Part shown: in pieces, positions 1,394-62,533 of the stretch
Position numbering within the stretch: position 1 is the first letter of the stretch
Layout: the number at the start of each line of letters is the position of its first letter
Origin: a virus
Taxonomy: Duplodnaviria; Heunggongvirae; Uroviricota; Caudoviricetes
DNA length: 64,000 bases
Direction: 5' to 3' (one strand)
Virus record (IMG/VR): IMGVR_UViG_3300044796_000394
Translations under genes and position numbers: made by a program
Notes under the pieces: model-generated
Database searches by the model: none
Told to the model about the DNA's origin: nothing
The model's input: only the letters and a program-made list of their open reading frames with translations

Positions 1394-2044
1394 TTATGCT
1401 TTTTTGCGAATATCTTTTTTGATGCTCTGCATTTGATTATCCAAGGCCAAGCCGAAGTAAGAAACAAAAGCCTTACTGTTAACATTGTGATTTTCAACGA
1501 TTGGCTTGACTGGTTCAAAATTTTCACGTTTGCTTGAAACCTTATTCATCGGCTGTTGGAAAGCAGCATAAGTGCTAGGATCGGCAACGGCATCAAAAGT
1601 GATTAATTTGTAACTTTCGCCAATAACCAAAACGCCTTCATTGTTCGTTTGGCCATTACCAACACCACGACTACTAATACCAATACGACCACCGGCTTCC
1701 ATGATGCTCTTTAAGATCATGCCGCTTGGCGTACGAAGAATTTCGCCTTCACCCATCAACACATTACCTTCCCACCATAAGCGGGTAACAACGTGACTTG
1801 TATTGGCCAAGTGAATAATCGAATCCGTAGGGTGATCGAGTTCGCCGTAAAGCCCCTTGGAGCTAACTGTTTCTGCTAATTTTTCCACGTTCGATGCTAG
1901 AACGTCATACGGGTACATCCGCTTATTCTTATTGGTGGCATTGGCCTCTTGAAACTTACCCTGAAACTTGGTTCGTCCGTTAGTGGATTCACTCAAAGCA
2001 AAGGAAGTCCATCCGCAGCAGTCAATAAGGAGATGATCAGTCAT
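1394..2044 (-). CDS. Prohead maturation protease (T4 gp21-like)
   Basis: Motifs NKNKRMYP, GELDHP, IGISSRGVG and TFDAVADPS. Confidence 0.95.
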   Translation of the reverse strand: MTDHLLIDCCGWTSFALSESTNGRTKFQGKFQEANATNKNKRMYPYDVLASNVEKLAETVSSKGLYGELDHPTDSIIHLANTSHVVTRLWWEGNVLMGEGEILRTPSGMILKSIMEAGGRIGISSRGVGNGQTNNEGVLVIGESYKLITFDAVADPSTYAAFQQPMNKVSSKRENFEPVKPIVENHNVNSKAFVSYFGLALDNQMQSIKKDIRKKA

Positions 2045-7003: not shown

Positions 7004-7661
7004 TATCGTAGTCGTTATCAACAGCCCATTGTGCTAAATCATGAAGGGCTTTGATGTTTCTCTGAATTCTTTCCTTGTCCACACCGCCGAAATGTACATC
7101 GGCCTTCCCCGGCTTTTTATCAACCTTGGCAGGCTCAACAGCCTTATCAATCTGGAAATCATTAATGGATTGAATCTTCCACAACAATTCTCTTGATTGA
7201 AGTGACTGTACCCCTCGCATACCCATTAATTGCAACACCAAATCAGCCATGTCGTTGCTCATGTTAACTTCCGGTGCCCGATTCTGACTATCCGGAATTT
7301 CTACATCAATACGATAAACGACATCGGGATGGAACGTTCCGCTTTGTTCCTTGCGGAATTTCCCATGTTTAACACCCATTTCCCCAATGGCATAAACAGC
7401 ACCATTGACAATTTTAGCCCACTCTGTTTCAGGCACGCCAGTAGGGTACAGGTTCATAGTACCTTTTTTCAAATGAGTATTCAAACCATCAATGGTAAAA
7501 ATACCTTCGGGATTGGTAGCTTTTTGACTCAAAGGTGCGTGTTGGTGAAGCCAAGCACGCACCTTATAGCCAAGGTCGGCGATGTCCTTAACATCGCTTG
7601 CCTCATATCCCTCTGGTTCAAACGTTACGCTTTCCGTTAACCACTTTTTGAAATTATTCAC
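6987..7661 (-). CDS. Hypothetical protein, putative internal head protein
   Basis: 224 aa; N-terminus xNNFKKWLTES; overlaps the portal stop. Confidence 0.6.
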   Translation of the reverse strand: MNNFKKWLTESVTFEPEGYEASDVKDIADLGYKVRAWLHQHAPLSQKATNPEGIFTIDGLNTHLKKGTMNLYPTGVPETEWAKIVNGAVYAIGEMGVKHGKFRKEQSGTFHPDVVYRIDVEIPDSQNRAPEVNMSNDMADLVLQLMGMRGVQSLQSRELLWKIQSINDFQIDKAVEPAKVDKKPGKADVHFGGVDKERIQRNIKALHDLAQWAVDNDYDTIAMS

Positions 7662-10194
7662 CTTCTACCTCGCTGGCATCAATTTCTTCGTCGTCAATTC
7701 CTTGCGACAAATCGTAAATTTCCAAATCGTACATCTTCAACTCATCGTCAGTTGGATCAGGCAATTCTACTACTTCAGGCTTCTCTGGTTGACCGTACGT
7801 GTCTTGTGCTTCGGCTCCAGGCTGTTGATCGCCCCCCGCATCCATTTCGCCACCTGTAGGCGGTTGATCTGGAGGCGGTTGCTGCCCGCTCATATCATTT
7901 GGTACTGGCCCGCCTGCTTGTGATCCCAATTCATTGCCCGGTGCTTGCGGCATAGCCACACCCAACAATTGAGGATTTTGACTCATTACTTGCAGCTTCA
8001 GTTCTTGCAGCTTCTGAATCATTGAACGAGCGACTTTTTCCTTCGCCTTTTCCAACGGTTCGTGCATAACATCCGTCAACAAGTCCAAGTCAGAATAAAC
8101 CATCGTACCCTTCAAGGTGGAAAGACGGTTAACACGGGCATCCTTGATTTCGTTTTCTGAGATTTCACGGTAGTGAGATGGAGCAGTCATCTTGATCTGC
8201 AAATCATCAAACAAATCACTTGGATAGCCACGCAATTGTAAGTGTCGAATAGCAACCTGAACCAGTCCACTCGCAACGTTTCTTTGTAGCCTCTCAACCA
8301 ATCTCGCAAACTTAACATCAACACTGGATAACGTCACTTTGGTGATTGAAGGATCGTCTTGTGCCATGTAGTTTCTTGGGAAACACATTGAGATAAACAA
8401 CTTGTTTCTGAAGTACAAGGCATCGTCAATTTCGCCTAAGTTTTGGGCACCGGGCAATGTTTCAACCCGTGTATTAGAATTCGGACGCAATGGAATCCAG
8501 AAGTCTTCATCGGCTGTCGGTGGCGTATTTCTTTCATCAACTGGCCCTGCACCCGACTGACCACCCTTAGAAGTAAATACCTTTTTCTTACGGAATTGAT
8601 CTTTCAATCGTTCCATGAAAGCTTCAGTTTTGAACGATGATAATTGACCAACATCGATGTAAAAGACCCGTCTTTCCGGCGCACGTGAAAGACGATAGAT
8701 TAACATACTATCTTCCATCAACTTCAATTGGTGCGCTGGGCCACGTGCTGCTTCAATCAAACTCACTCCATAAGGGAAAAACGTCTTGCGATTTCCGCCA
8801 ATACTAAAGTGTACGATAGATTGAGGTTGGAATCTGATAGCCGTTGCCTGCATCAATTCCGCTTCTGTAGCCTTCGTTACGTCAACCTTAGCTAAACTCT
8901 GATAATCAGGCCCATCTTTGGCTTGTTGGAATTCAATAGTCTTGCCTTTGATCGTATCAATACGATAAATACTTTCAGGTGGAAGTACTTGTACTTTCAA
9001 AATACCTAACTTGGGTTCATCGGAATCAATGACGAGTTCAATGAAGTGATCGCCATAAAGGAACAAGTCCCGGCACCAGCTCCAAATATTTTCGTCAAGG
9101 TTAATCATCGTCGGATGAAAAAAGAGGAATTCCAATTCTTCTTTGATGTCCGGATTTTTGCAGATGATATCGAGCATGTGCCCGTTCTCACCGATCTGGC
9201 AATTATGAAATACGCCGATGTCAGTACAGAAATTTTCGTGCTGATCTACGGAAAGATCGTAAACGTCCTCTTCGGCACCTTCCCAAGTAGCCAATACGGT
9301 TACGTAATCGGGAATCTCGCCTAAATGCTGGCATTCACGATAGCAAAAACCTTCGTATCTCAATCTTTCGGAAAGGGTATCCCAATCCTTACCGAAGAAC
9401 TCAGCGACTTGTTTGGTTTTCAATCCACCGGCAATGGATCTAACAATCTTGTATAGATTTTCTTTTTGTGTTTCGCCGGTACGCCATTCTTCAATGAAAT
9501 CACGTTCCGTCATCCAGCCTTTGTTATGGGTGAAAATACGTGGGAATTGTTTGCGTTTGGCACAAGCAAAAGTTTTTTCTGGCCGTTTGCGGTAGAAAGG
9601 CATCATACGATCACCCTTCTTTAACTGCCCCGCTTCAATCCATTCACCATTTCTCAACAAAACCCTATGGTCAGCAGTACAGCGGAATTGCGCACCGTCT
9701 GAAACGGTTACAACAACAGTTTTAGACTTCTTGACAATGCGTGGATGATGTGCCCAACCGAGTGTGTAATCTTGCTTGCCAAAATCGTAACAATATACGA
9801 GGAACTTTTCCCCTGTCATCTTGCGGGCAGCGAGGTCTTTAATTTCAATAAAGCCGAATGGAGTAGCAACTTTGGTATGTCCAGCAACGCAGGCTTCGTC
9901 AGCGAAAATCGTAATAGCATTTTCAATTTCGGGTACTGTTCTTAATCTTTCGTATTCTTTATATCGGCTTTGACGGTTTGTTACGCTGGATAAATCGATG
10001 AAGTCATTGCTGTCACGAAGCCTTACAACACCCCTACTACCACCAAAATATTCACCACTTTGACGAATGTCTTGAATGGCGTCTGGAACGGTAACGCCCG
10101 CACCTTCAATATCGTGAGTTACTTCACGCCGACGGATGGGATCAAGCTCACCTTGAAACTGCCATACCTTGTACAAATCACTCCAAAACGGCAT
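7654..10194 (-). CDS. Portal protein (T4 gp20-like) containing an intein
   Basis: Motifs PYGVSLIEAAR, LMEDSMLIYRLSRAPERRVFYIDVG, EDFWIP and ETLPGAQNLGEIDD. Confidence 0.95.
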   Translation of the reverse strand: MPFWSDLYKVWQFQGELDPIRRREVTHDIEGAGVTVPDAIQDIRQSGEYFGGSRGVVRLRDSNDFIDLSSVTNRQSRYKEYERLRTVPEIENAITIFADEACVAGHTKVATPFGFIEIKDLAARKMTGEKFLVYCYDFGKQDYTLGWAHHPRIVKKSKTVVVTVSDGAQFRCTADHRVLLRNGEWIEAGQLKKGDRMMPFYRKRPEKTFACAKRKQFPRIFTHNKGWMTERDFIEEWRTGETQKENLYKIVRSIAGGLKTKQVAEFFGKDWDTLSERLRYEGFCYRECQHLGEIPDYVTVLATWEGAEEDVYDLSVDQHENFCTDIGVFHNCQIGENGHMLDIICKNPDIKEELEFLFFHPTMINLDENIWSWCRDLFLYGDHFIELVIDSDEPKLGILKVQVLPPESIYRIDTIKGKTIEFQQAKDGPDYQSLAKVDVTKATEAELMQATAIRFQPQSIVHFSIGGNRKTFFPYGVSLIEAARGPAHQLKLMEDSMLIYRLSRAPERRVFYIDVGQLSSFKTEAFMERLKDQFRKKKVFTSKGGQSGAGPVDERNTPPTADEDFWIPLRPNSNTRVETLPGAQNLGEIDDALYFRNKLFISMCFPRNYMAQDDPSITKVTLSSVDVKFARLVERLQRNVASGLVQVAIRHLQLRGYPSDLFDDLQIKMTAPSHYREISENEIKDARVNRLSTLKGTMVYSDLDLLTDVMHEPLEKAKEKVARSMIQKLQELKLQVMSQNPQLLGVAMPQAPGNELGSQAGGPVPNDMSGQQPPPDQPPTGGEMDAGGDQQPGAEAQDTYGQPEKPEVVELPDPTDDELKMYDLEIYDLSQGIDDEEIDASEVEGE
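9202..9891 (-). mobile_element. Intein (230 aa) in the portal gene
   Basis: Starts CVAGHTKV, has block B CTADHRVL and block F VYDLSVDQHENF, ends FHN followed by Cys+1. Confidence 0.92.
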
Positions 10195-16932: not shown

Positions 16933-18975
16933 TTAATGTCCAAATCCAAATTTCTTTGGAATCCATTTATTGGTTTTCTTATCATAAGCCCATATGTGTA
17001 ATGGTGGGGCTTTTTCAGTAGGCATCGGTGCCCGCTTAACTTTCTTCGGCTTTTCAGCAGCAGGTTCAGGGTCATCACCGAACAAATTCGTACTCTTAAG
17101 ACTTGCAGGACGCAAAGGCTCTTCCTTGGGTTTAGGTTCGGCCTTCGGCTCTTTGATTTTCTTTGGAGCCGGTGGGGTATGCGCTGCCGTCTGCGTCATA
17201 ACATCAATTGCCTTCTTTGGCACATCCTTCTTGATTTCAGTTGCACCAGAATTACTCTTACGCTTCTCAATAATGCTTTGAGCCATGTGCTGTAGTGCGA
17301 TAGGCATACCCTTGCTTCTGATCTTATCTGGGTTCATTTCACCCAATTTGATAAGCATCTTGCCCAACATTTCAGCCGCCGCATCGAGCTTGGTATCACT
17401 GTACCCAAACTCTTTATCAGCACGCAAATTGGTAACAAGCCAAGACTTGTAAGTTTTCACCATTTCCGGCGTAACGTGAACGTCCGCTGCTTCCGCTTCG
17501 GTTGGAATCTTGAAATCCCGTAACTCTTTTTCAGCATCATCACGATTATCGTCATCACGTTTGTGATCCCGACCAGCCATCGCCGACATATCTGTATCAT
17601 TATTTTTAGAATGTTTGAGATAAGTGCTGATTTCTTGTGTTGCTACCTGTCGTGCTTTGTTAATCCGAAAATCTTGATCGGCATATTCGGCACTACCAAC
17701 AACAGCATCACTGCTTAAGGAGTCCATAGCCGCTTGTTCCAATTGATCCAAGCTATCGCCCAATGGCTGATTGGTTTGGCCTTGCATAAATCTCAAAGCG
17801 ATTTTGGCACCGGCGTTGGCATCGTGTTGAAGGATCGACATCCAATCCATCGAAGGGTCCATATTCTTCTTGAAACGAGAACTCGCCTTATTGAGTGATG
17901 GTACATTTTCAGGATCGCTAAGGTGTTTGTTTTGACCATCAATCCACTTCTGGATTAAATCAAACTTATGACCAGCAACCTTCTTCGCCGTATCCACAGT
18001 ACTACCAGCCTTGAACCCCGGATGATAAGTACCACGTTCCATCCAACGCATCGCTGAGACACGGGGTAATGGGTTGTCGTAGAAGTTAACACCCTTGTCT
18101 TTCAAATCTTCAAGTCTTTGTTTCAATGCTTCAATGTGAACGGGAATCGGAATTGTTCGGCCTCCACCAACCTCCCAATCCATCACTTCACCAGCCTTAT
18201 GACCCTTAGAAGGCATCATAGCCTTGGGATCATTAACCAAGTGACCGCTATACCGTCTCATGAAAGCAGGAACCAAAACCCTCTTCAATTCATCAGGCGA
18301 TAATTGGCTTTTGAAAGCTTGAATAAATTCGTGATCGTTCTCATCGAGATAAATTGGTTCTTTGACCTTAACACCGCCACGGTGATCTTCGGCATTACTT
18401 GATCCAAAACCGCCAACGTGAGTTACGAATGGTTTCCGTCCACCAGATGTAGCTGTAAGGTTCGGCTTGTAATCCTTCAAAGCATAAGCCTGTGAAAGTT
18501 CAGGAACCTTATCACTGTCGTGGAAATAGGAATTGCCCAACCACTCTTTGGCAGTACGAGTGGAAGAATCACGAGTCAAGTTAATCTTGGCAGGATCATA
18601 TCCCAAATCTTCAAGCTTCTGTAAAAGTTGCTTAGAGTGCGTATCAACCTCTAAATCAAAGCGGATTGGAATAAAATCTTTTTTGCCTTTGGTTTTTTCA
18701 AATTGCGTTTGAATGGAAATGTTTCTTTTGGATGGATCTGGTTTTTGAAGAACCTTCTCACTGTACCGATAAGCAACGGCTTTCGCCAATACCACGCCCA
18801 ATAAACGCCGCATTTCTTCGCCGCTATATTTGTCACCGTAATTTTGTGTTACGTAATCGGCAATCGGTTTTAGGTAAGCAGTATCCGCATCATCGAAGTA
18901 AATTTCCTTGCCGAATGGAACGGCGGGCATTTCGACGAGCAGTCTGTGCTCAAAATATTTTTTGAAATTCATCAT
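16933..18975 (-). CDS. Large hypothetical protein, putative internal head protein
   Basis: N-terminus MMNFKKYFEHRLLVE; repeated IYFDDAD/IYLDEND domain. Confidence 0.6.
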   Translation of the reverse strand: MMNFKKYFEHRLLVEMPAVPFGKEIYFDDADTAYLKPIADYVTQNYGDKYSGEEMRRLLGVVLAKAVAYRYSEKVLQKPDPSKRNISIQTQFEKTKGKKDFIPIRFDLEVDTHSKQLLQKLEDLGYDPAKINLTRDSSTRTAKEWLGNSYFHDSDKVPELSQAYALKDYKPNLTATSGGRKPFVTHVGGFGSSNAEDHRGGVKVKEPIYLDENDHEFIQAFKSQLSPDELKRVLVPAFMRRYSGHLVNDPKAMMPSKGHKAGEVMDWEVGGGRTIPIPVHIEALKQRLEDLKDKGVNFYDNPLPRVSAMRWMERGTYHPGFKAGSTVDTAKKVAGHKFDLIQKWIDGQNKHLSDPENVPSLNKASSRFKKNMDPSMDWMSILQHDANAGAKIALRFMQGQTNQPLGDSLDQLEQAAMDSLSSDAVVGSAEYADQDFRINKARQVATQEISTYLKHSKNNDTDMSAMAGRDHKRDDDNRDDAEKELRDFKIPTEAEAADVHVTPEMVKTYKSWLVTNLRADKEFGYSDTKLDAAAEMLGKMLIKLGEMNPDKIRSKGMPIALQHMAQSIIEKRKSNSGATEIKKDVPKKAIDVMTQTAAHTPPAPKKIKEPKAEPKPKEEPLRPASLKSTNLFGDDPEPAAEKPKKVKRAPMPTEKAPPLHIWAYDKKTNKWIPKKFGFGH

Positions 18976-52273: not shown

Positions 52274-54544
52274 CTAGAACGAAACGGCACAAGCGCCTCC
52301 TGCACAAGCTGCCTCTCCAATCAAGTTAGTTTCATCACTATCTTCGGTGAGTGAGGCGTAATCAACGTGCTTCCATTCACGCTTTAAGTCACACCACATT
52401 TTCCAATTGCTGACTTCTTTCAAGCAATAAATCATTCTACCTTTGTCGCCACTAAAGTAGCGGTCGGCAAATTGTTCTGCCCGACGTACCCAATCTATTT
52501 TCAGATCGTATTTGTTTAACCAATTAGGATTGTCCGGCTTTGCAACTTTATTAATACCACGCAAAGTATCACAAGCAACCCACAAGCTATCAAAAGCGTG
52601 AAGGCCATCCACAATTAACCCTGATGCGAAGATAGAGGCATCTCCATACTTGGCAACCAATTCTTCCGGCGTACTCACAGCACAGAACGGAGCTTGCGGA
52701 TAATCCAAATCACCAGTTGAAGGCAACAAACTGATACCTGCGAAGAATTCACGATTGTCATAGATGTAATTTTCTACTTCATCCCATTCTTCAGGTTTAA
52801 CTGAAACGGTATTAGAAACATTGTGACGAAGCCAAGGCTGCGCACATCGTTCAAGTCTAGTACCGGCACTCACCCAATTCTGTTGTGTCAATTTGACAAA
52901 CTTCAAAAGGTTAATAGCGCTGATATGCTCTTTCGTCAAAGCCTTATCATCAACTTCAATACAGAACGTCAAGATGGAATCATGACCATTCTTTGACCAA
53001 ACACTCTTTTCACAAGCCAACGGATTGACATCAGCAAAGAATTTCAATGGTGCTTCAAGGTTGTTACCCTGTACTCGTCGGAAATATCTCTTGCTGTGGT
53101 GAGGGTGGACGCCCGATGACGTTCCCAACATACAACTTGTCGTACCAGCAGGCTTGATACAAGTGCATCTGGCAGCAGGATTGATCCCCAACTCTACCGC
53201 AAATTCACCGTTAACTTCCTTGATAATTTCAGCCATCTTACGCTGAATATCAGGACTGAACATCACTCTGGAATTTTCCATCATTCCCGTAATACTGACG
53301 CCCAACAACGCTTCTCTAGCCGTAATCCGCTCACTGACTTCACCCAGATAAGGGAAAGACGTATAGCTGGCTTGGAGCGTACCGATGATAGCACCTGCAC
53401 GAGCAGCTACCTCAAAATCTTCTTCATTCTCAATCATCTTGCCGTTGATTTCGGTCAAGTTACAGAACTGCCAACCACTGTTTCCAAATTCATCATAAGC
53501 GTACAGGGCGATTTCAACGCAAGGGTTGAAACCACATTCTTCGCTGTCCGACCAGATGAATCCGGGTTCGCCGTATTCCTTAACCCAAGTCATCAGGTTT
53601 TTGAATTGCTCTTTGGTGGTCTTATTACGAATTAACAAGGCACTATTGTTGCTTCTTGCTCGTTGTGGGTTTTCATAGAACCAGTTACCGGTCTTGGCCT
53701 TGGCCATTTCCATATCGTCTGGACTGAATAAACAGATCGTAGCCGAACGACGAACACCACCGCTGAGAACGGCATCGGATGCGTACATCACAATGTCGTA
53801 AGCATCAATAGGTCTTAGAGCAACCGTTTCCGGGTTAATTGTAATTCTAGCGTGTAGTTCATTCTTGACAACTACTTCCGGTGTATTCAATTCGCTATCG
53901 CACTTTATGTCAAACTTAAGACGATTATCAAGCAGCTTGCGAATTAACTCTAATGATTTTTCCAGCGGTTCAGGGCCGGGGCATTTACCTGAGCCTGATG
54001 ACAGTGGGGTACCTTTAGGGCTGATGTTGGCGTAATCGAATTCAACCGTGTAGCCGAAGTAATCGGAGTCTGGATTCGTGTAGGAATCGATGAGGACGCC
54101 TAGAGAGTCGCCCCAACCTGCGATAGAATCGGGAATGAGGTATGTCATTCCACCATTGGCAGGTTTATGCAATACTGGCAACTTAGCAACGTGGTGCTTC
54201 TGTACAGAGAAACCTACGCCACTTCCGCAGAGGAGGAGGTAGAAGGCTTCTTGGAAAAAGCGTGGTCGGTCGCAATAAGAGAAACAGCAGTTGTAAATCC
54301 GAGCATTAACCTTTTCAATTGGCTTGCCACCGAATTGCAATGCTCGCTGAGAACCGAGTACTCTTTTTTCCAGTACACGATCAAAGGCCCAATTGATTTT
54401 TTCTTCGGCGTGTGAATGCTTTCTGATGTGCATTTGTCTGACACGATCTACCGCTTCTGGCCATGTTTCACGACGTTTTTTATCTTCTAGGTATCTTGCG
54501 TATTTGCTTGTGTATGTGTAATCTTGTAACGCTTCTACTGACAT
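52274..54544 (-). CDS. nrdJ: Ribonucleotide reductase, class II-like (adenosylcobalamin-dependent type)
   Basis: KYARY...RRETW, YNC, GGVRRSA, NPCVEI, CNLTEI, IKPAGTTS and C-terminal CAGGAC; no beta-subunit gene seen in the window. Confidence 0.85.
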   Translation of the reverse strand: MSVEALQDYTYTSKYARYLEDKKRRETWPEAVDRVRQMHIRKHSHAEEKINWAFDRVLEKRVLGSQRALQFGGKPIEKVNARIYNCCFSYCDRPRFFQEAFYLLLCGSGVGFSVQKHHVAKLPVLHKPANGGMTYLIPDSIAGWGDSLGVLIDSYTNPDSDYFGYTVEFDYANISPKGTPLSSGSGKCPGPEPLEKSLELIRKLLDNRLKFDIKCDSELNTPEVVVKNELHARITINPETVALRPIDAYDIVMYASDAVLSGGVRRSATICLFSPDDMEMAKAKTGNWFYENPQRARSNNSALLIRNKTTKEQFKNLMTWVKEYGEPGFIWSDSEECGFNPCVEIALYAYDEFGNSGWQFCNLTEINGKMIENEEDFEVAARAGAIIGTLQASYTSFPYLGEVSERITAREALLGVSITGMMENSRVMFSPDIQRKMAEIIKEVNGEFAVELGINPAARCTCIKPAGTTSCMLGTSSGVHPHHSKRYFRRVQGNNLEAPLKFFADVNPLACEKSVWSKNGHDSILTFCIEVDDKALTKEHISAINLLKFVKLTQQNWVSAGTRLERCAQPWLRHNVSNTVSVKPEEWDEVENYIYDNREFFAGISLLPSTGDLDYPQAPFCAVSTPEELVAKYGDASIFASGLIVDGLHAFDSLWVACDTLRGINKVAKPDNPNWLNKYDLKIDWVRRAEQFADRYFSGDKGRMIYCLKEVSNWKMWCDLKREWKHVDYASLTEDSDETNLIGEAACAGGACAVSF

Positions 54545-54598
54545 TCTGATCCTTAATTCTTAAACTTTGAGGGAAGGTATTTAAAGTGATACCGTCAA

Positions 54599-54778
54599 TT
54601 ATTCTTTAAATTGTTGAGCAAAAGAGTTCAAATCAATGAAATGTTCCTTTAAAATGCCCGGAAATGATTCTTCTGCTTGTTTTAGAATTTCGGCATCAGA
54701 CGGAGTAGTAAGACTTTCATGATCGGCAGCTTGGAACCAATACAAAATACGATTTGCATCTTCTTTAGTTAAATTCAT
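54599..54778 (-). CDS. Small hypothetical protein (59 aa; not in the ORF track)
   Basis: MNLTKEDANRILYWFQAADHES...; ATGA overlap with the last array gene; lacks the array tag. Confidence 0.55.
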   Translation of the reverse strand: MNLTKEDANRILYWFQAADHESLTTPSDAEILKQAEESFPGILKEHFIDLNSFAQQFKE

Positions 54779-54996
54779 TCTGACTCTTCTTTCAATATTT
54801 CACATTTGATTTTTGGTTTTTTTATTCTAATAAGCGGTGTTGTTAACAATATCGAATCCATTGACGGATAGGCTCTTCGTATCAGAGGCATATGCAAAGT
54901 CGGATACGTTAAAGTCGGATACGTTCTACGATTTTCCGGAATCTCTTTGAGTGGAATTTCCTTAAATCCTTTTAATTTTTCAATACGTTCTGGCAT
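54775..54996 (-). CDS. Tagged mini-gene 6 with a major-capsid (Gol-region)-like peptide
   Basis: MPLIRRAYPSM; tag IKKPKIKCEILKEE. Confidence 0.8.
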   Translation of the reverse strand: MPERIEKLKGFKEIPLKEIPENRRTYPTLTYPTLHMPLIRRAYPSMDSILLTTPLIRIKKPKIKCEILKEESE

Positions 54997-55319
54997 TATT
55001 CTTCCCCCAATATTTCACATTGGATTTTAGACTTTTTCAACACGTAAGGCTTAGTACACTCATAGGCATAACTGTATTCATCCTGCCATCGTTCATTGCC
55101 GTTAAAAGTTGTACCAGAACCAACACCACGGGAACTGATACCAACACGAGGCATGGGAACGGCCAAAATAGATGGATTTTGAGCCATGACTTCAAGTTTC
55201 AATTTCTGCAATTGCTTAATTTTCAATTCTGCTATTATTTTTTCTTGTTCTGTCTTTGTGAGCTCTTTGAATTCTTTCAAAAAATTCTCTACAATTCTAA
55301 TTTCACTTTCAGTTGGCAT
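54996..55319 (-). CDS. Tagged mini-gene 5 with portal-like and prohead-protease-like peptides
   Basis: IKQLQKLKLEVMAQNPSILAVPMP then RVGISSRGVGSG; tag LKKSKIQCEILGEE. Confidence 0.85.
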   Translation of the reverse strand: MPTESEIRIVENFLKEFKELTKTEQEKIIAELKIKQLQKLKLEVMAQNPSILAVPMPRVGISSRGVGSGTTFNGNERWQDEYSYAYECTKPYVLKKSKIQCEILGEE

Positions 55320-55630
55320 TATTCAATCTCCTTTAATATTTCGCATTTTATTTTTGATTTTTTGATACGAATGTAACCATAGTTAGTTTGCATGATAGGA
55401 TCTGCTGAATGTGAGACAGTTAATGGCTCGCCCCACGAATTTTGAAGAATAATCTCCCCACATGGATTTGCGCCAACATAATTAACAGAATGACTCCAAA
55501 CATTACGATCTGCAAACTGAGACGGAATATTAACTAGCGGTATACCCGATGACATACCATATTCAACTTCATCCCATTGTGATGACAATGATGATGAAAT
55601 TGATGTTGGCCACGTTGCATAAACTGGCAT
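55319..55630 (-). CDS. Tagged mini-gene 4 with tail-tube-like and RNR-like peptides
   Basis: WPTSI...WDEVEY and GANPCGEIIL; tag IKKSKIKCEILKEIE; start at the TAATG overlap. Confidence 0.8.
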   Translation of the reverse strand: MPVYATWPTSISSSLSSQWDEVEYGMSSGIPLVNIPSQFADRNVWSHSVNYVGANPCGEIILQNSWGEPLTVSHSADPIMQTNYGYIRIKKSKIKCEILKEIE

Positions 55631-55833
55631 TATTCTTCCCCTAATATTTCGCAAGTAATTTTTGGTTTTGGAAAATATGATCCAAAAACTTGTTGGTGGT
55701 AATCTGCTGGCAGTGCGTAATGATGCCTATAATTTTTGTTGAAAATTTGTGATTGTGTGATTCCACAATGTCTGTATAAAGCAGCCATCACCTCTCGCTT
55801 CAAAGCCTCCAAAGTTTCTTCTTCAGTTTTCAT
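55630..55833 (-). CDS. Tagged mini-gene 3
   Basis: EETLEALKREVMAAL; tag PKPKITCEILGEE. Confidence 0.8.
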   Translation of the reverse strand: MKTEEETLEALKREVMAALYRHCGITQSQIFNKNYRHHYALPADYHQQVFGSYFPKPKITCEILGEE

Positions 55834-56029
55834 CTGGCAGCTCCTTTAATATTTCGCATATGATCTTGGATTTCTTTTTCGATTTCTCCGAGCTCCAGCT
55901 ATGATCAAACGGATCGTGCCAAACGTAATCGTCAGAGTAAGAGTTGGCGTACGAATACGAATATAATGATGTTGATGCCGCTGGCACATCAACCGTGATG
56001 TTCATATCTTCAATAACAACTTGTGGCAT
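55823..56029 (-). CDS. Tagged mini-gene 2
   Basis: PQVVIEDMNITVDVPAA; tag KKKSKIICEILKE. Confidence 0.8.
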   Translation of the reverse strand: MPQVVIEDMNITVDVPAASTSLYSYSYANSYSDDYVWHDPFDHSWSSEKSKKKSKIICEILKELPDEN

Positions 56030-56253
56030 TACTCTTCCCCCAATATTTCACAGGTGATTTTAGACTTGATTTTAGGCTTAACAATTTGTTTGCCGTATCT
56101 TGTCAAGGTAGGTGTGGTGGCGATACCGTGGTAATACAATGGATTGACACGGGTACGGTAACTTTCACGGGCTGCTGTTTCGCTCGTATAATAATCATAA
56201 TACGAAGACAAGTTGATTGGCGTATTGCCTGTTTTTACTGCTTCTATTTTCAT
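56029..56253 (-). CDS. Tagged mini-gene 1 with sheath-like and capsid-C-terminus-like peptides
   Basis: RESYRTRVNPL and LTRYGKQIVKP; tag IKSKITCEILGEE; ATGA overlap with the SbcC-like stop. Confidence 0.8.
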   Translation of the reverse strand: MKIEAVKTGNTPINLSSYYDYYTSETAARESYRTRVNPLYYHGIATTPTLTRYGKQIVKPKIKSKITCEILGEE

Positions 56254-58196
56254 TTGATCCTACTTATTCCGTTTTCTTTAATGACTGTGATAGTATCGTA
56301 GTTACTTAACATTTCCAACAATTCAGGATCGTGTGTAGTCACCAAGACTTGACGATCTCTTGCCAATTCGCAAATCATGGCAAAAACGGATTGAATGCCC
56401 GGTCTGTCCAGATTTGTACCAACCTCATCCAGACTGACAAGACTCGGACAGGAACCAGCCGTTAAAGCGGTTACGTTTGCGAATCCCTGCGAAATACCCA
56501 AGCTGATGCGTTGATGTTCACCGCCAGACATTGCGCTGTGTACGAAAGGATCACCGTCTGGAGGATTCCTCTCAATCTTCTCAACCAATTCCGTATTGAA
56601 CTTAAGAGTGATCTTATTATCAATCAAGAATTGGAGCCAGAAGTTAATCTTGGCATTGAGCAATGGAACGATTTCATCAATGATAAACGACCGAATGCCC
56701 TTGTCGCCGAAACCCATAATCCAAAAATCGTAATATGGGATTTGAGAAGTATGCTCATCAACTTCCTTACGCTGCGACATCATCTTTTGACGATTGAAAT
56801 CTAATTCTGCTTCCAAATTGGCCAAGATCGGCCCATAAGGATCGCCTGCCTCGTACTCAGTTACTTTCTGCTCTAATTGTTCTGACAGTGTATCAATCTT
56901 TTGTTCGATAATCAATGCCGCTGCATTAGCATTCTTCTGAAAAGCCGCTGTCAACTGTGAACGCTTGGATTCCAACTCACGAATATTCCTCACGACACCC
57001 AATTCACGAATTTTGGCATTTTCAATCGCTTCAACAATAGCCGCAATCGCCCTATCGTACTTGCCCATCTTGACAGCCGCCGCATCCCAATCGGTCTGAT
57101 TCTTCTTGATCTCTTCCCTGATTTCAGCAATCTGATCCTCGTTATGGGAAATCACGTGCTGGAAATTTTCCTTGTTCACAACACCGAAACAAACCTTACA
57201 TTTAGTACCGTTACTCGTCGTCAAAGAATGGGTTTGTTGCTTCAATTCCTCAATGTCTTTTTCACTCTTCTTGATTGCGTAAGCGAGTTCTTTAGTTCCT
57301 AGCATCAACGTTTGACGATCTTCACGTACTTGACTGTGTTTCTTTTCCGCTTCTCGAATCGCTTCCTGTATCGCTTGACGAGATTTCGTTTTTTCTTGAA
57401 TCGACTCTTCAACCAAAGAAATGTTCTCGTAGCTACTCACCGAATCTGGCTGAATTTGGGCCATCTCCTCTTTTGCCCTAACAATCTGTAGCTTCAATCG
57501 CTCAATGCTGTTCATCTGGCCCATTCGCCAATCTTCACGCTGCTTTGAGATGTTGATAATTTGCCGTTCAGCAGTTTGAACATTAACAGAACTTTTTTCA
57601 TAAACTGCTTTGATGACTTCCAGCTTTTGAAGAATTACAGTTTTCCGCTTCTTCGCCGACTCACAAAACTTATTGTACTTGTCTAGAGACAACAAACTCT
57701 CTGCGATCTGCCTTTTTTCAGAAGGGTTGCACATCAAGAAAGGCTTAGCGTTATGCTGGCCGAAACAAACAATGTTAATGAAGGCATTGTAGTTCAGTTT
57801 GATGATCTTGTTGATTTCATCTTGGGTTGCAGGAATACCACCGAGCTTCTGTAAATCGCCATCCTTGTACAGAGTCAAATCGTTCTTTTCTCTTCTGCGA
57901 TTGATCACATAAGCGTGACCGTCCAATTCAAAGCCAATTTCAACTTCCAACTTGGACTTCATCTTAATGTTGATGACTTCGTATTGGTTGAGGCTCTTGA
58001 TCAGCTTGCCATAAAAGGCGTAAACAATGGCTTCTATGATGGTACTCTTACCAGCACCATTACTCGCATCTTTGCCAATATCAAGATTTTCACCTTTGAT
58101 ACAAACGATGTTGCCGTACTTTGTGAAATCGATGAAAAGAGGATTCTCGTTTCCGAACGATAAAAAGTTTGATGCTTTGATGTAATTGATTTTCAT
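56250..58196 (-). CDS. SMC/Rad50-family recombination nuclease ATPase subunit (gp46/SbcC-like)
   Basis: NFLSFG, NGAGKST, CKVC zinc hook, MSGGE, LDE and TH motifs. Confidence 0.95.
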   Translation of the reverse strand: MKINYIKASNFLSFGNENPLFIDFTKYGNIVCIKGENLDIGKDASNGAGKSTIIEAIVYAFYGKLIKSLNQYEVINIKMKSKLEVEIGFELDGHAYVINRRREKNDLTLYKDGDLQKLGGIPATQDEINKIIKLNYNAFINIVCFGQHNAKPFLMCNPSEKRQIAESLLSLDKYNKFCESAKKRKTVILQKLEVIKAVYEKSSVNVQTAERQIINISKQREDWRMGQMNSIERLKLQIVRAKEEMAQIQPDSVSSYENISLVEESIQEKTKSRQAIQEAIREAEKKHSQVREDRQTLMLGTKELAYAIKKSEKDIEELKQQTHSLTTSNGTKCKVCFGVVNKENFQHVISHNEDQIAEIREEIKKNQTDWDAAAVKMGKYDRAIAAIVEAIENAKIRELGVVRNIRELESKRSQLTAAFQKNANAAALIIEQKIDTLSEQLEQKVTEYEAGDPYGPILANLEAELDFNRQKMMSQRKEVDEHTSQIPYYDFWIMGFGDKGIRSFIIDEIVPLLNAKINFWLQFLIDNKITLKFNTELVEKIERNPPDGDPFVHSAMSGGEHQRISLGISQGFANVTALTAGSCPSLVSLDEVGTNLDRPGIQSVFAMICELARDRQVLVTTHDPELLEMLSNYDTITVIKENGISRIK

Positions 58197-59233
58197 TCGG
58201 CGCAAATCTCCTGTGCTATTTTGAGCAAGTCATTCGTGTCTAAATTTTGTGTATTGCTGGCAGAAATGAACCTTTGGAAAAGGTCGCCATCTTGCAAATT
58301 GAATTTGAGCATTCGATCTTCTTTGGATTCTTCTTTCGCAATGATTTCCTTCGGTAGAAATGTTACTTGTGAATCCGGTGATGTAGAACGTACCTTGCTC
58401 TGTAAATCTACTACGTCGGCAGAATTGAGGTCATCGACGTAAACCCTCACGAAATTGCGGCCCAAATCTTCGGGCAAATCCACAGCATCCAAAATCAAAT
58501 GCTTCGGTGAAAAATCATTAACTATCGCAATCGTTTCCAATGTTTCAGTATCCATCGCCAAGATGTGTTTTTCCTGAAAGGCTTCGTTAAATGTTAACTG
58601 TAATGGCGAACCGATGTACTCTACCTTGTCGGTCAATTTTTGGGCACCGTGATAGTGTCCCAAGAAAACTCTGTTCCATCCGTCAAAAAGATCACGGCTA
58701 ACAGGTACCATATCGTTTTCATTCTCAACCGATACTTCTGCTTTTGTTCTATGATTAAAGTTAAGTACGGCACCATCTACGGCAATATGACCAATCAATA
58801 CGTTAGACTTCTTCGCTTTCCAATTCTTTAGAGTATTAATTGGATTATGAGTGAAGGGCAAGAAGTCAATTGGGAAATCGCCGACCATCACGGTTGATGG
58901 TTCCGATACGACAGTAACGTTTTTAAGGGCAGCGAACGGATGTACACTAGAGATTTCTTTACTTTCGTAAAACCACAGATCGTGGTTGCCGAGTAGAAGA
59001 TAAAGATTAATGTCGGGATTGGCATTCAGAACATTGAATGTTTTGTTGTAAGCCAAAACTTGAATTTTTTGACGGTCTTGAAAGAGGTCGCCGCCAAAAA
59101 CGATATTTTTGATCTTCCGCTTGCGGGCCGTATCAAAAACCCACTGGAGGACTTTTAGACAATCCTCCAAGCGATCTTGACTACCTTTATGTGCTGCGAT
59201 GTGAACGTCTGAGAAAAATAAAATTTCGGGCAT
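58193..59233 (-). CDS. Mre11-family nuclease subunit (gp47/SbcD-like)
   Basis: SDVH, GGDLF, GNHD, GH, LGHYH and YIGSP motifs. Confidence 0.95.
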   Translation of the reverse strand: MPEILFFSDVHIAAHKGSQDRLEDCLKVLQWVFDTARKRKIKNIVFGGDLFQDRQKIQVLAYNKTFNVLNANPDINLYLLLGNHDLWFYESKEISSVHPFAALKNVTVVSEPSTVMVGDFPIDFLPFTHNPINTLKNWKAKKSNVLIGHIAVDGAVLNFNHRTKAEVSVENENDMVPVSRDLFDGWNRVFLGHYHGAQKLTDKVEYIGSPLQLTFNEAFQEKHILAMDTETLETIAIVNDFSPKHLILDAVDLPEDLGRNFVRVYVDDLNSADVVDLQSKVRSTSPDSQVTFLPKEIIAKEESKEDRMLKFNLQDGDLFQRFISASNTQNLDTNDLLKIAQEICAE

Positions 59234-61925: not shown

Positions 61926-61963
61926 ATGAATAAGATACTAACATACAAACTAAAGAATGTCAA

Positions 61964-62533
61964 TTATTCTTTGAATTGTCCAGCAAGTAATTTGGGATAG
62001 CGACTTTTTGGCAACCACGGGGCAATCATACGAATTAACGTCTCAGTACCCGGAACCGTAAAGACAATCACATAACTCTTGCGTGATTTATTAATATTAC
62101 AAGGAATTTCAACCTCATTGAAATATTGTTCAATGATTTCATTGCCTTTTAAGCCAAAAGACTGCGTCCGAAGACAAGCGTTCTTCATCTTGCGGCCAAT
62201 CAGTGTGCCACTATCACCGTACCAAACTGCAAGCCCCATATCTCTCAACGGATCAAGCCATTCCATGCAAACTTGTTTTTTGCCGTCGGGATAGCAGAAT
62301 TTACGCAGATCGGTGAAAATTGGATGTGAAACAGAACGCCAAGTACAAGTCGTTCCACTGATATACCACGGTGTTGCGGCCCCGTAATGCGCAATTTCGC
62401 TCGCCTTGGTTTGAAGCCAAGATAAGTGCTTGCTGCTGTGTCTCATACACAAGTAGCTGTTCTTAGAGCCTTGGCAAATATATCCATTGCCAAGCAGCGT
62501 ACCCAAGACGATTTGTCTTTGATTGTCGTCCAT
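61964..62533 (-). CDS. LAGLIDADG-family endonuclease-like protein with altered catalytic motifs
   Basis: QIVLGTLLGNG and LAVWYGDSG; LRTQSF. Confidence 0.8.
   Translation of the reverse strand: MDDNQRQIVLGTLLGNGYICQGSKNSYLCMRHSSKHLSWLQTKASEIAHYGAATPWYISGTTCTWRSVSHPIFTDLRKFCYPDGKKQVCMEWLDPLRDMGLAVWYGDSGTLIGRKMKNACLRTQSFGLKGNEIIEQYFNEVEIPCNINKSRKSYVIVFTVPGTETLIRMIAPWLPKSRYPKLLAGQFKE

Follow-up and report, generated by a model that had tools for sequence, protein, structure and literature searches.

Genomic setting of the mini-gene array

The window, a stretch of 64,000 nucleotides, is part of a 174.7-kb record of a huge uncultured phage (G000) with an estimated completeness of 35%, whose proteins are also present on a 614-kb contig. 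Its portal is 50.6% identical to that of LR756511.1, a 595-kb record that is the closest relative in the annotated collection (for the context of huge phages, see the available part of PMC7162821). The phage record carries a Gp23 capsid gene as well as the portal and prohead protease genes listed in Table 1. An intein occupies portal residues 154-331, and the same intein family was found in all 33 of 33 portal homologues. A second, diverged gene of the Gp23 family lies beyond the window, at G000:C1:102682-103641.

Six chained genes, m1 to m6, occupy 54775-56253, after the gp47-gp46 pair and before m7 and a ribonucleotide reductase (RNR) gene. The fifth of them, m5, has its ribosome-binding site inside the tail of the upstream gene. 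Eight residues of this shared tail were invariant in 7 of 7 copies, with synonymous variation at 7 of the eight, and the end of the tail doubles as the ribosome-binding site for the next gene. The GC content of the array was 0.33-0.41, compared with 0.42-0.50 in five core genes, and the bodies of the genes at 54775-56253 were rich in tyrosine (30 of 419 residues vs. 3.7% in long ORFs, p=5e-4). Promoter-like sites showed no excess in the array (17 sites vs. 12.8 +/- 3.0), and the same was true of terminator sites.

Table 1. Genes and gene pieces of the window to which the analysis refers
Feature	Position	Strand	Remarks
S77 prohead protease gene	1394..2044	-	motif at 1652-1687; comparison source for m5
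T4-type portal gene, intein-bearing	7654..10194	-	crown end at 7948-8085; comparison source for m5
m7, last coupled ORF	54599..54778	-	tail absent; ORF coupling
m6, tailed	54775..54996	-	capsid-like PLIRRAYP at 54865-54888; rank 1/560, E 3.2
m5, chimeric mini-gene	54996..55319	-	107 aa; start overlaps upstream stop (TAATG)
m5, shared tail K-[SP]-K-I-x-C-E-I-L-[GK]-E	55002..55034	-	last codons are the Shine-Dalgarno site of the next gene
m5, linker	55035..55100	-	three Tyr; predicted disordered; between protease piece and tail
m5, prohead-protease piece (residues 58-69)	55113..55148	-	weak similarity on to residue 73; holds likely catalytic-serine position
m5, portal-derived piece (residues 12-57)	55149..55286	-	last two crown helices and QNP turn; own portal 704-749
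m4, tailed	55319..55630	-	RNR-like GANPCGEIIL at 55445-55474; phrog_367 E 0.21, not significant
m3, tailed	55630..55833	-	body without significant match
m2, tailed	55823..56029	-	body without significant match
m1, tailed	56029..56253	-	LTRYGK as in capsid C-terminus at 56089-56106; not significant
gp47-like phosphoesterase and gp46/SbcC-like ATPase genes	56250..59233	-	directly upstream of array; gp46 coupled to m1

To reveal how widely the tail is distributed, several collections were searched. There was no match in the viral contigs, and 24 metagenome and 2 genome matches were obtained, none of which lay within a mini-gene array by translation. Among the 29 related records, weak, chance-like matches appeared in 2, and LR756511.1 gave none; nor was the array present at the syntenic site of LR756511.1. 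A tail-profile search of 1.84 billion proteins returned only 6 proteins, all from this genome, and this search is blind to independent members (leave-one-out E-values of 0.002-660). Sliding-clamp-binding C-termini of the T4 gp43/gp55/gp33 type carry a hydrophobic-aromatic, SLDFL-like motif; the tail contains no aromatic residue, and no PF09116 match was found in LR756511.1 or in G000 (35% complete), a search that a diverged clamp could escape.

The initial annotation had singled out m5 as the strongest piece of evidence in the array, and m5 was indeed the only member with significant matches. In the capsid profile search m1 ranked 13 of 560, and neither m1 nor m6 was detected by Pfam Gp23. The capsid-like region of m6 is one that we take to correspond to the Gol peptide of T4. 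In a motif scan, each of five core motifs occurred exactly two times in the genome; the patterns were written after the matches had been seen, so this count carries no test. The motifs of m1, m4 and m6 are suggestive only as excerpts of other genes.

m5 is a chimera of portal and protease pieces

We found that m5 is a true chimera, in which a portal-crown piece and a protease active-site stretch (RVGISSRGVGSG) are joined in frame with zero spacer between them. The gapless portal match that had been reported was confirmed: 55149-55220, encoding m5 residues 34-57, aligned with portal residues 726-749 (7948-8019) at 15 of 24 amino acids. The extent given for it was too short, however, and with a profile of 34 portals the homology reached upstream to about residue 12-16. 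At the DNA level, the core matched the own portal at 47 of 72 nucleotides, with a different codon at 9 of the 15 identical residues. The match was significant by BLASTP (E 1.5e-6 among 364 genome ORFs), by the best ungapped score (87, against a shuffle maximum of 56, n=200) and by the portal profile, in which m5 ranked 1 of 560 small ORFs (E 5.8e-9). When the genome was scanned in all six frames with the portal alignment, only the portal and m5 were matched (m5 E 1.9e-8).

Compared with the T4-type portal gp20 (PF07230, phrog_213), the homology of m5 residues 12-57 is to the final two helices of the crown, as found in the portals of this phage group. Residue 713 of the own portal aligns with T4 gp20 residue 494, within the crown, and the three-helix crown domain of gp20 comprises residues 451-524 and is the innermost part of the portal according to the available text of PMC4493910. 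No PF07230 match was obtained for m5, in which only the crown helices align and no clip, stem or wing. In an AF2 model, the own portal showed helices at 702-709, 714-739 and 741-744, with a local pLDDT of about 80 and a value of 57.6 for the whole model. For m5, AF2 gave helices at 4-19, 22-47 and 49-52 with a pLDDT of about 90, and values below 50 for residues 60-107; the helix pair equals that of the portal in length, in a fold biased toward the portal by the portal pieces in the m5 alignment. Residues 4-52 are predicted by this model to fold as a crown helix pair, and the remainder to be disordered.

The portal piece is by no means unchanged. m5 deviates at D12, R31, Q35 and G53, each of which is conserved in 99 of 99 portals, and is also altered at the nearly invariant Q43, G55 and K36, so that, of 18 portal positions with strong conservation, about 7 differ in m5. 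Ser50 and Ile51 of m5 are rare, yet present, among portals. The 7 changes that had no counterpart in an initial set of 34 portals did not cluster significantly on a helix face (p=0.06). With 46 residues, no clip, stem or wing and altered invariants, m5 differs from gp20 to the point that a portal ring is impossible.

The protease piece is shorter. As had been noted initially, 55113-55148 matches the own protease at 10 of 12 residues (protease 120-131), and only the position in the source gene required correction by one base, to 1652-1687. The piece agreed with the protease gene at 28 of 36 nucleotides, with a different codon at 3 of the 10 identical residues. The support was weaker than for the portal piece, with a BLASTP E of 0.005 (among 364 genome ORFs), a best ungapped score of 61 against a shuffle maximum of 56 (n=200), and rank 1 of 560 small ORFs in the protease profile at E 0.031, the match being confined to residues 58-71. 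In a comparison set of 75 motif-bearing frames in 81 loci, the 12-mer was identical at 12 of 12 residues to the proteases of three relatives, L104, L108 and L115, with 6-9 of the 12 codons differing.

The catalytic-serine motif RVGISSRG is present in m5. PDB 5JBL shows Ala at the first Ser of this motif, consistent with S140A, which is a dead mutant of the prohead protease in the available part of 10.64898/2026.03.04.709575. In comparison with T4-type gp21 (PF03420, phrog_207; PDB 5JBL), m5 holds only the 12-residue stretch around the likely catalytic serine, which is predicted to be disordered; it gave no PF03420 match and has neither the catalytic His and Asp nor the barrel. Because it contains no catalytic His/Asp and no full domain, m5 can be neither a protease nor a portal. 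In L088 and L090, at about position 18379, a 97-residue frame opens with a piece resembling the protease N-terminus (E 0.037).

It is extremely improbable that an assembly chimera explains the junction in m5. A 120.6-kb Logan DNA contig of depth 17, built by a separate assembler, spans the array with 0 differences, and the frame, tail and coupling of m5 are all regular. In addition, the pieces are only 65-78% identical in DNA to the genome's own genes, and thus they are not misjoined copies of these. On the other side, this sole junction-spanning DNA run may be the source sample itself, and the contigs of an RNA-library run (X2) cover most of the array but not about 54906-55289, which includes the junction; an 80-kb record is present in that run too, which cannot serve as expression evidence. 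A further run (X3, small share) contributed a single contig of 496 bases, which resembles 54369-54812 at about 90%; no contig of this run covered m5, even when the likeness required was lowered to 80%.

Origin of the two excerpts

The differences at synonymous positions had been taken to mean that m5 is not a recent copy of this genome's own genes, and our results agree: portal pS was 0.82-0.90 against self, and placement on the own branch was rejected (AU p=0.010). Synonymous sites of the portal piece were saturated against self, and against 99 distinct related portals pS had a minimum of 0.54 and a median of 0.80, while pN was at least 0.35 over the 46 codons. Placement together with the own portal and its nearest relative was not rejected (p=0.113), and many deep placements tied, in a test of 23 portals that left out P0041 and six mini-proteins and in which P0013 sat on a long, probably misaligned branch. 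A search for donors among the portals and proteases of the sampled relatives found none, and scans with gp46 or with the C-terminus of the portal as single proteins did not reveal a close relative. The saturated synonymous sites and the unsettled placement thus indicate either that the pieces are old or that their donor belongs to the same group but has not been sampled. The earlier inference that the similarity is kept at the protein level, or that the pieces came from a related phage, is consistent with the conservative changes and with the 12-mer found intact in the proteases of relatives.

The comparison with other portals bears on a different explanation, which we consider unlikely, namely that m5 is directed against rivals and that its crown helix pair would cap or poison the portal ring or prohead core of a co-infecting relative. 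In 31 of the 99 portals the sequence was closer to m5 than was the own portal (best 20/46 vs. own 17/46), and the upstream 17 residues of m5 gave a score of -6 with the own portal and scores of up to +27 with other portals; both observations count in favour of this explanation, as does the protease piece with 12/12 to relatives vs. 10/12 to self. In the available text of PMC4493910, a 24-residue T4 portal peptide, from the clip domain and not the crown, inhibits packaging in vitro. However, for the 24-residue core of m5 (15/24), self was as close as any of 34 portals, so self-poisoning would be expected, which argues against this explanation. In addition, m5 departs from all sampled portals at invariant residues, and the placement favours no foreign lineage.

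Selective constraints on m5

To evaluate constraint, the amino acid changes were compared with neutral simulation, and they were more conservative than expected (p=0.001 for both pieces; for the portal piece, p=0.016). The 7 portal changes without a counterpart in the initial set of 34 portals were conservative only to a marginal degree (p=0.053). At a nucleotide divergence of 0.15-0.25, the probability under neutrality was 0.004-0.023 for an unchanged protease 12-mer, if both pieces are equally old, and 0.06-0.14 for a 107-codon frame staying open. These sequence comparisons, which are indirect evidence, suggest that the m5 peptide is likely to be under selection, and the changed invariant portal residues also fit decay. 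No orthologue of m5 was found in the viral contigs, the protein collection (3 candidates), GenBank phages (E 10) or the ESM Atlas.

Another reading, a rather doubtful one in our judgement, is that the array is near-neutral cassette debris. The dual-coded tail, comprising the stop, the Shine-Dalgarno site and the next start, would then be a recombination and translation-coupling unit expressing whatever DNA precedes it, and the pieces of m5 would stem from a deletion in a captured head operon and be recognisable because their sources are conserved. Consistent with this, the portal-then-protease order is that of the head operon, a substantial share of the conserved portal positions is changed, no orthologue was found, most bodies match nothing, the tail ends in the next ribosome-binding site, and the array has a lower GC content than the core genes; an unsampled donor could explain the saturated synonymous sites. 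However, the conservative substitutions, the unchanged 12-mer and the open frame argue against debris, and so do the retention of K-x-K-I-x-C-E-I-L at the amino acid level and the recurrence of the crown excerpt at protein ends.

Recurrence of crown excerpts

A profile search of proteins of 25-188 aa gave 37 matches besides m5, comprising 10 small chimeras and 27 truncated or split portals. The 10 small chimeras contain the same crown excerpt with unrelated flanks, and 9 of the 10 end no more than 26 residues past QNP, an ending for which contig-edge effects are possible on short contigs. The protease motif and the m5 tail were absent from all 10. One of the chimeras is an intact coupled gene in L225, about 300 kb from its portal, against which pS was 0.71 and pN 0.16; it was 1 of 79 crown matches in 80 loci. 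Outside the portal gene, a portal excerpt was found in 0 of 29 related records, 28 of which are incomplete. In P0049 and P0061 (the latter being L225:1815-2150), the crown excerpt stands behind a twin-arginine-like hydrophobic leader, which suggests a membrane-anchored version of the excerpt.

In LR756511.1, we observed dispersed small genes with excerpts at 410484-410744, 224453-225196, 588014-588313 and 234344-235180. Portal excerpts in these small genes reached E 4e-7 and 2.5e-7 and a capsid C-terminal excerpt E 5e-11, and weaker capsid and portal N-terminal pieces stand side by side in small genes. None of the excerpt genes has the CEIL tail, and two open with twin-arginine-like leaders. 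One of them presumably carries a piece resembling a neck protein. A different C-terminus, C-x-C-D-I-x-x-L-M-x-x-G-C-K-C-G, is found on unrelated small proteins at 128081, 38362 and 82954 of LR756511.1 and at L225:636-998.

Possible roles of m5

As our preferred, if tentative, reading of the sequence evidence, we propose that m5 may be a tethered, non-catalytic decoy of prohead surfaces that counters host recognition. The donor of the captured excerpts would have been a member of the same huge-phage group, either older or not yet sampled. In T4, DNA-metabolism genes are expressed before heads assemble, and m5 would likewise be made with the gp47-gp46 operon before the head genes. The changed invariant residues would prevent m5 from entering the portal ring of the phage itself, and the shared tail would hold it on a putative common partner. 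The crown mimic and the exposed active-site peptide could then occupy host proteins that recognise head-assembly components. Such a role is consistent with the homology, the predicted helix pair of portal-like lengths, the conservative changes, the unchanged 12-mer, the conserved tail and the recurring crown excerpt, and the absence from 29 of 29 relatives' records and from the LR756511.1 site fits an accessory function.

What is known of sensors weakens the proposal: Avs4 grips the stem, clip and wing of the portal and is not known to read the crown. CBASS senses the activity of the prohead protease and not the motif, as stated in the available text of 10.64898/2026.03.04.709575; because activity is what CBASS reads, a dead 12-mer would not decoy it. 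A ligand mimic might trigger a sensor as easily as block it. The Gol peptide of gp23 activates Lit in the portion of PMC8829019 that was available.

Alternatively, m5 might modulate the phage's own assembly by binding crown or core partners and timing prohead initiation, with the L-x-E of the tail as a protease site; we regard this as distinctly improbable. The sources of both pieces function at the prohead stage, and within the portal the crown lies innermost. T4 gp21 cleaves after I/L-x-E (10.64898/2026.03.04.709575, available part), and L-[GK]-E occurs in 7 of 7 tails vs. 12 of 106 long ORFs (last 10 residues). However, the relatives build heads without a gene of the m5 type, and the operon to which m5 belongs is one of DNA metabolism, 47 kb away from the head genes. 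The Shine-Dalgarno overlap also explains L-[GK]-E, and a cut at this site would remove 1-6 residues only.

The decoy proposal may be extended to the array as a whole, in a version that we find doubtful: in huge T4-like phages, the tail cassette would capture conserved head-protein excerpts of relatives, stack them in one gene, as with the portal crown and the protease active site, and dock all the products on one partner, making the array a programmable library of peptide mimics that acts as a multivalent decoy or anti-rival weapon.

Comparison with known systems and significance

The direct fusion of portal and protease pieces is the special feature of m5, and the nearest printed design is that of the ankyrin ORFs of Bodo saltans virus (BsV). 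Like m5, these ORFs join an excerpt of an essential gene to a constant C-terminal module and form tandem arrays (PMC5871332, available part). They carry 5' fragments of essential viral genes, and in the same text a decoy role is put forward by the authors as a proposal (PMC5871332). The differences are clear, however: BsV, a giant virus of eukaryotes, has large ankyrin modules joined to fragments of replication enzymes, whereas here a phage uses an 11-residue dual-coded tail and virion-assembly excerpts, two of them fused in one gene. No Pfam ankyrin repeat was matched in m5.

Short excerpts of head proteins with effects of their own are also known, as in the proposal for m5, from the gp20 clip peptide 288-311 (available text of PMC4493910) and from Gol (available text of PMC8829019). 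These come from other regions and are synthetic or lie within the intact protein, whereas m5 is a separate gene. A search of open-access papers and bioRxiv showed no description of genes of this kind, although supplements of genome papers may list them. Likewise, no sensor directed at the crown of the portal or at the active-site loop of the protease turned up in searches of this scope.

If the array is selected and functional, it would map the head surfaces that hosts monitor or that can be attacked in rivals, and a functional m5 would point to the crown of the portal and the active-site loop of the protease. Each excerpt could then serve as bait in the search for sensors and assembly partners that are not yet known from uncultured huge phages. 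If the array is neutral, it would still show how a short dual-coded repeat allows phages to build new coupled genes out of scraps of foreign DNA.

PeSL cassettes of T4-type phages are non-coding promoter/stem-loop units between small variable genes. In both cases a repeated unit separates small genes, whereas the repeat of the array is a conserved peptide plus a ribosome-binding site.

Other features of the record

The seventh tail copy belongs to an isolated gene beyond the window (L025, G000:C1:130579-130779) with no recognisable excerpt. It lies between a 500-aa gene and a 213-aa ORF, and appears to supply the ribosome-binding site of the latter; from its motifs, we take the 500-aa neighbour to resemble an aspartyl-tRNA synthetase. 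The RNR gene at 52274-54544 showed a match to a B12-type insertion domain, and the syntenic site of LR756511.1 holds a different RNR pair; the array may have been acquired together with this RNR. A 28-bp repeat with 3 mismatches (minus strand, AAAGAATAATTGAC) was observed at 54594-54621, at the 3' end of m7, and at 61959-61986, at that of a LAGLIDADG endonuclease gene, and may be a shared promoter element.
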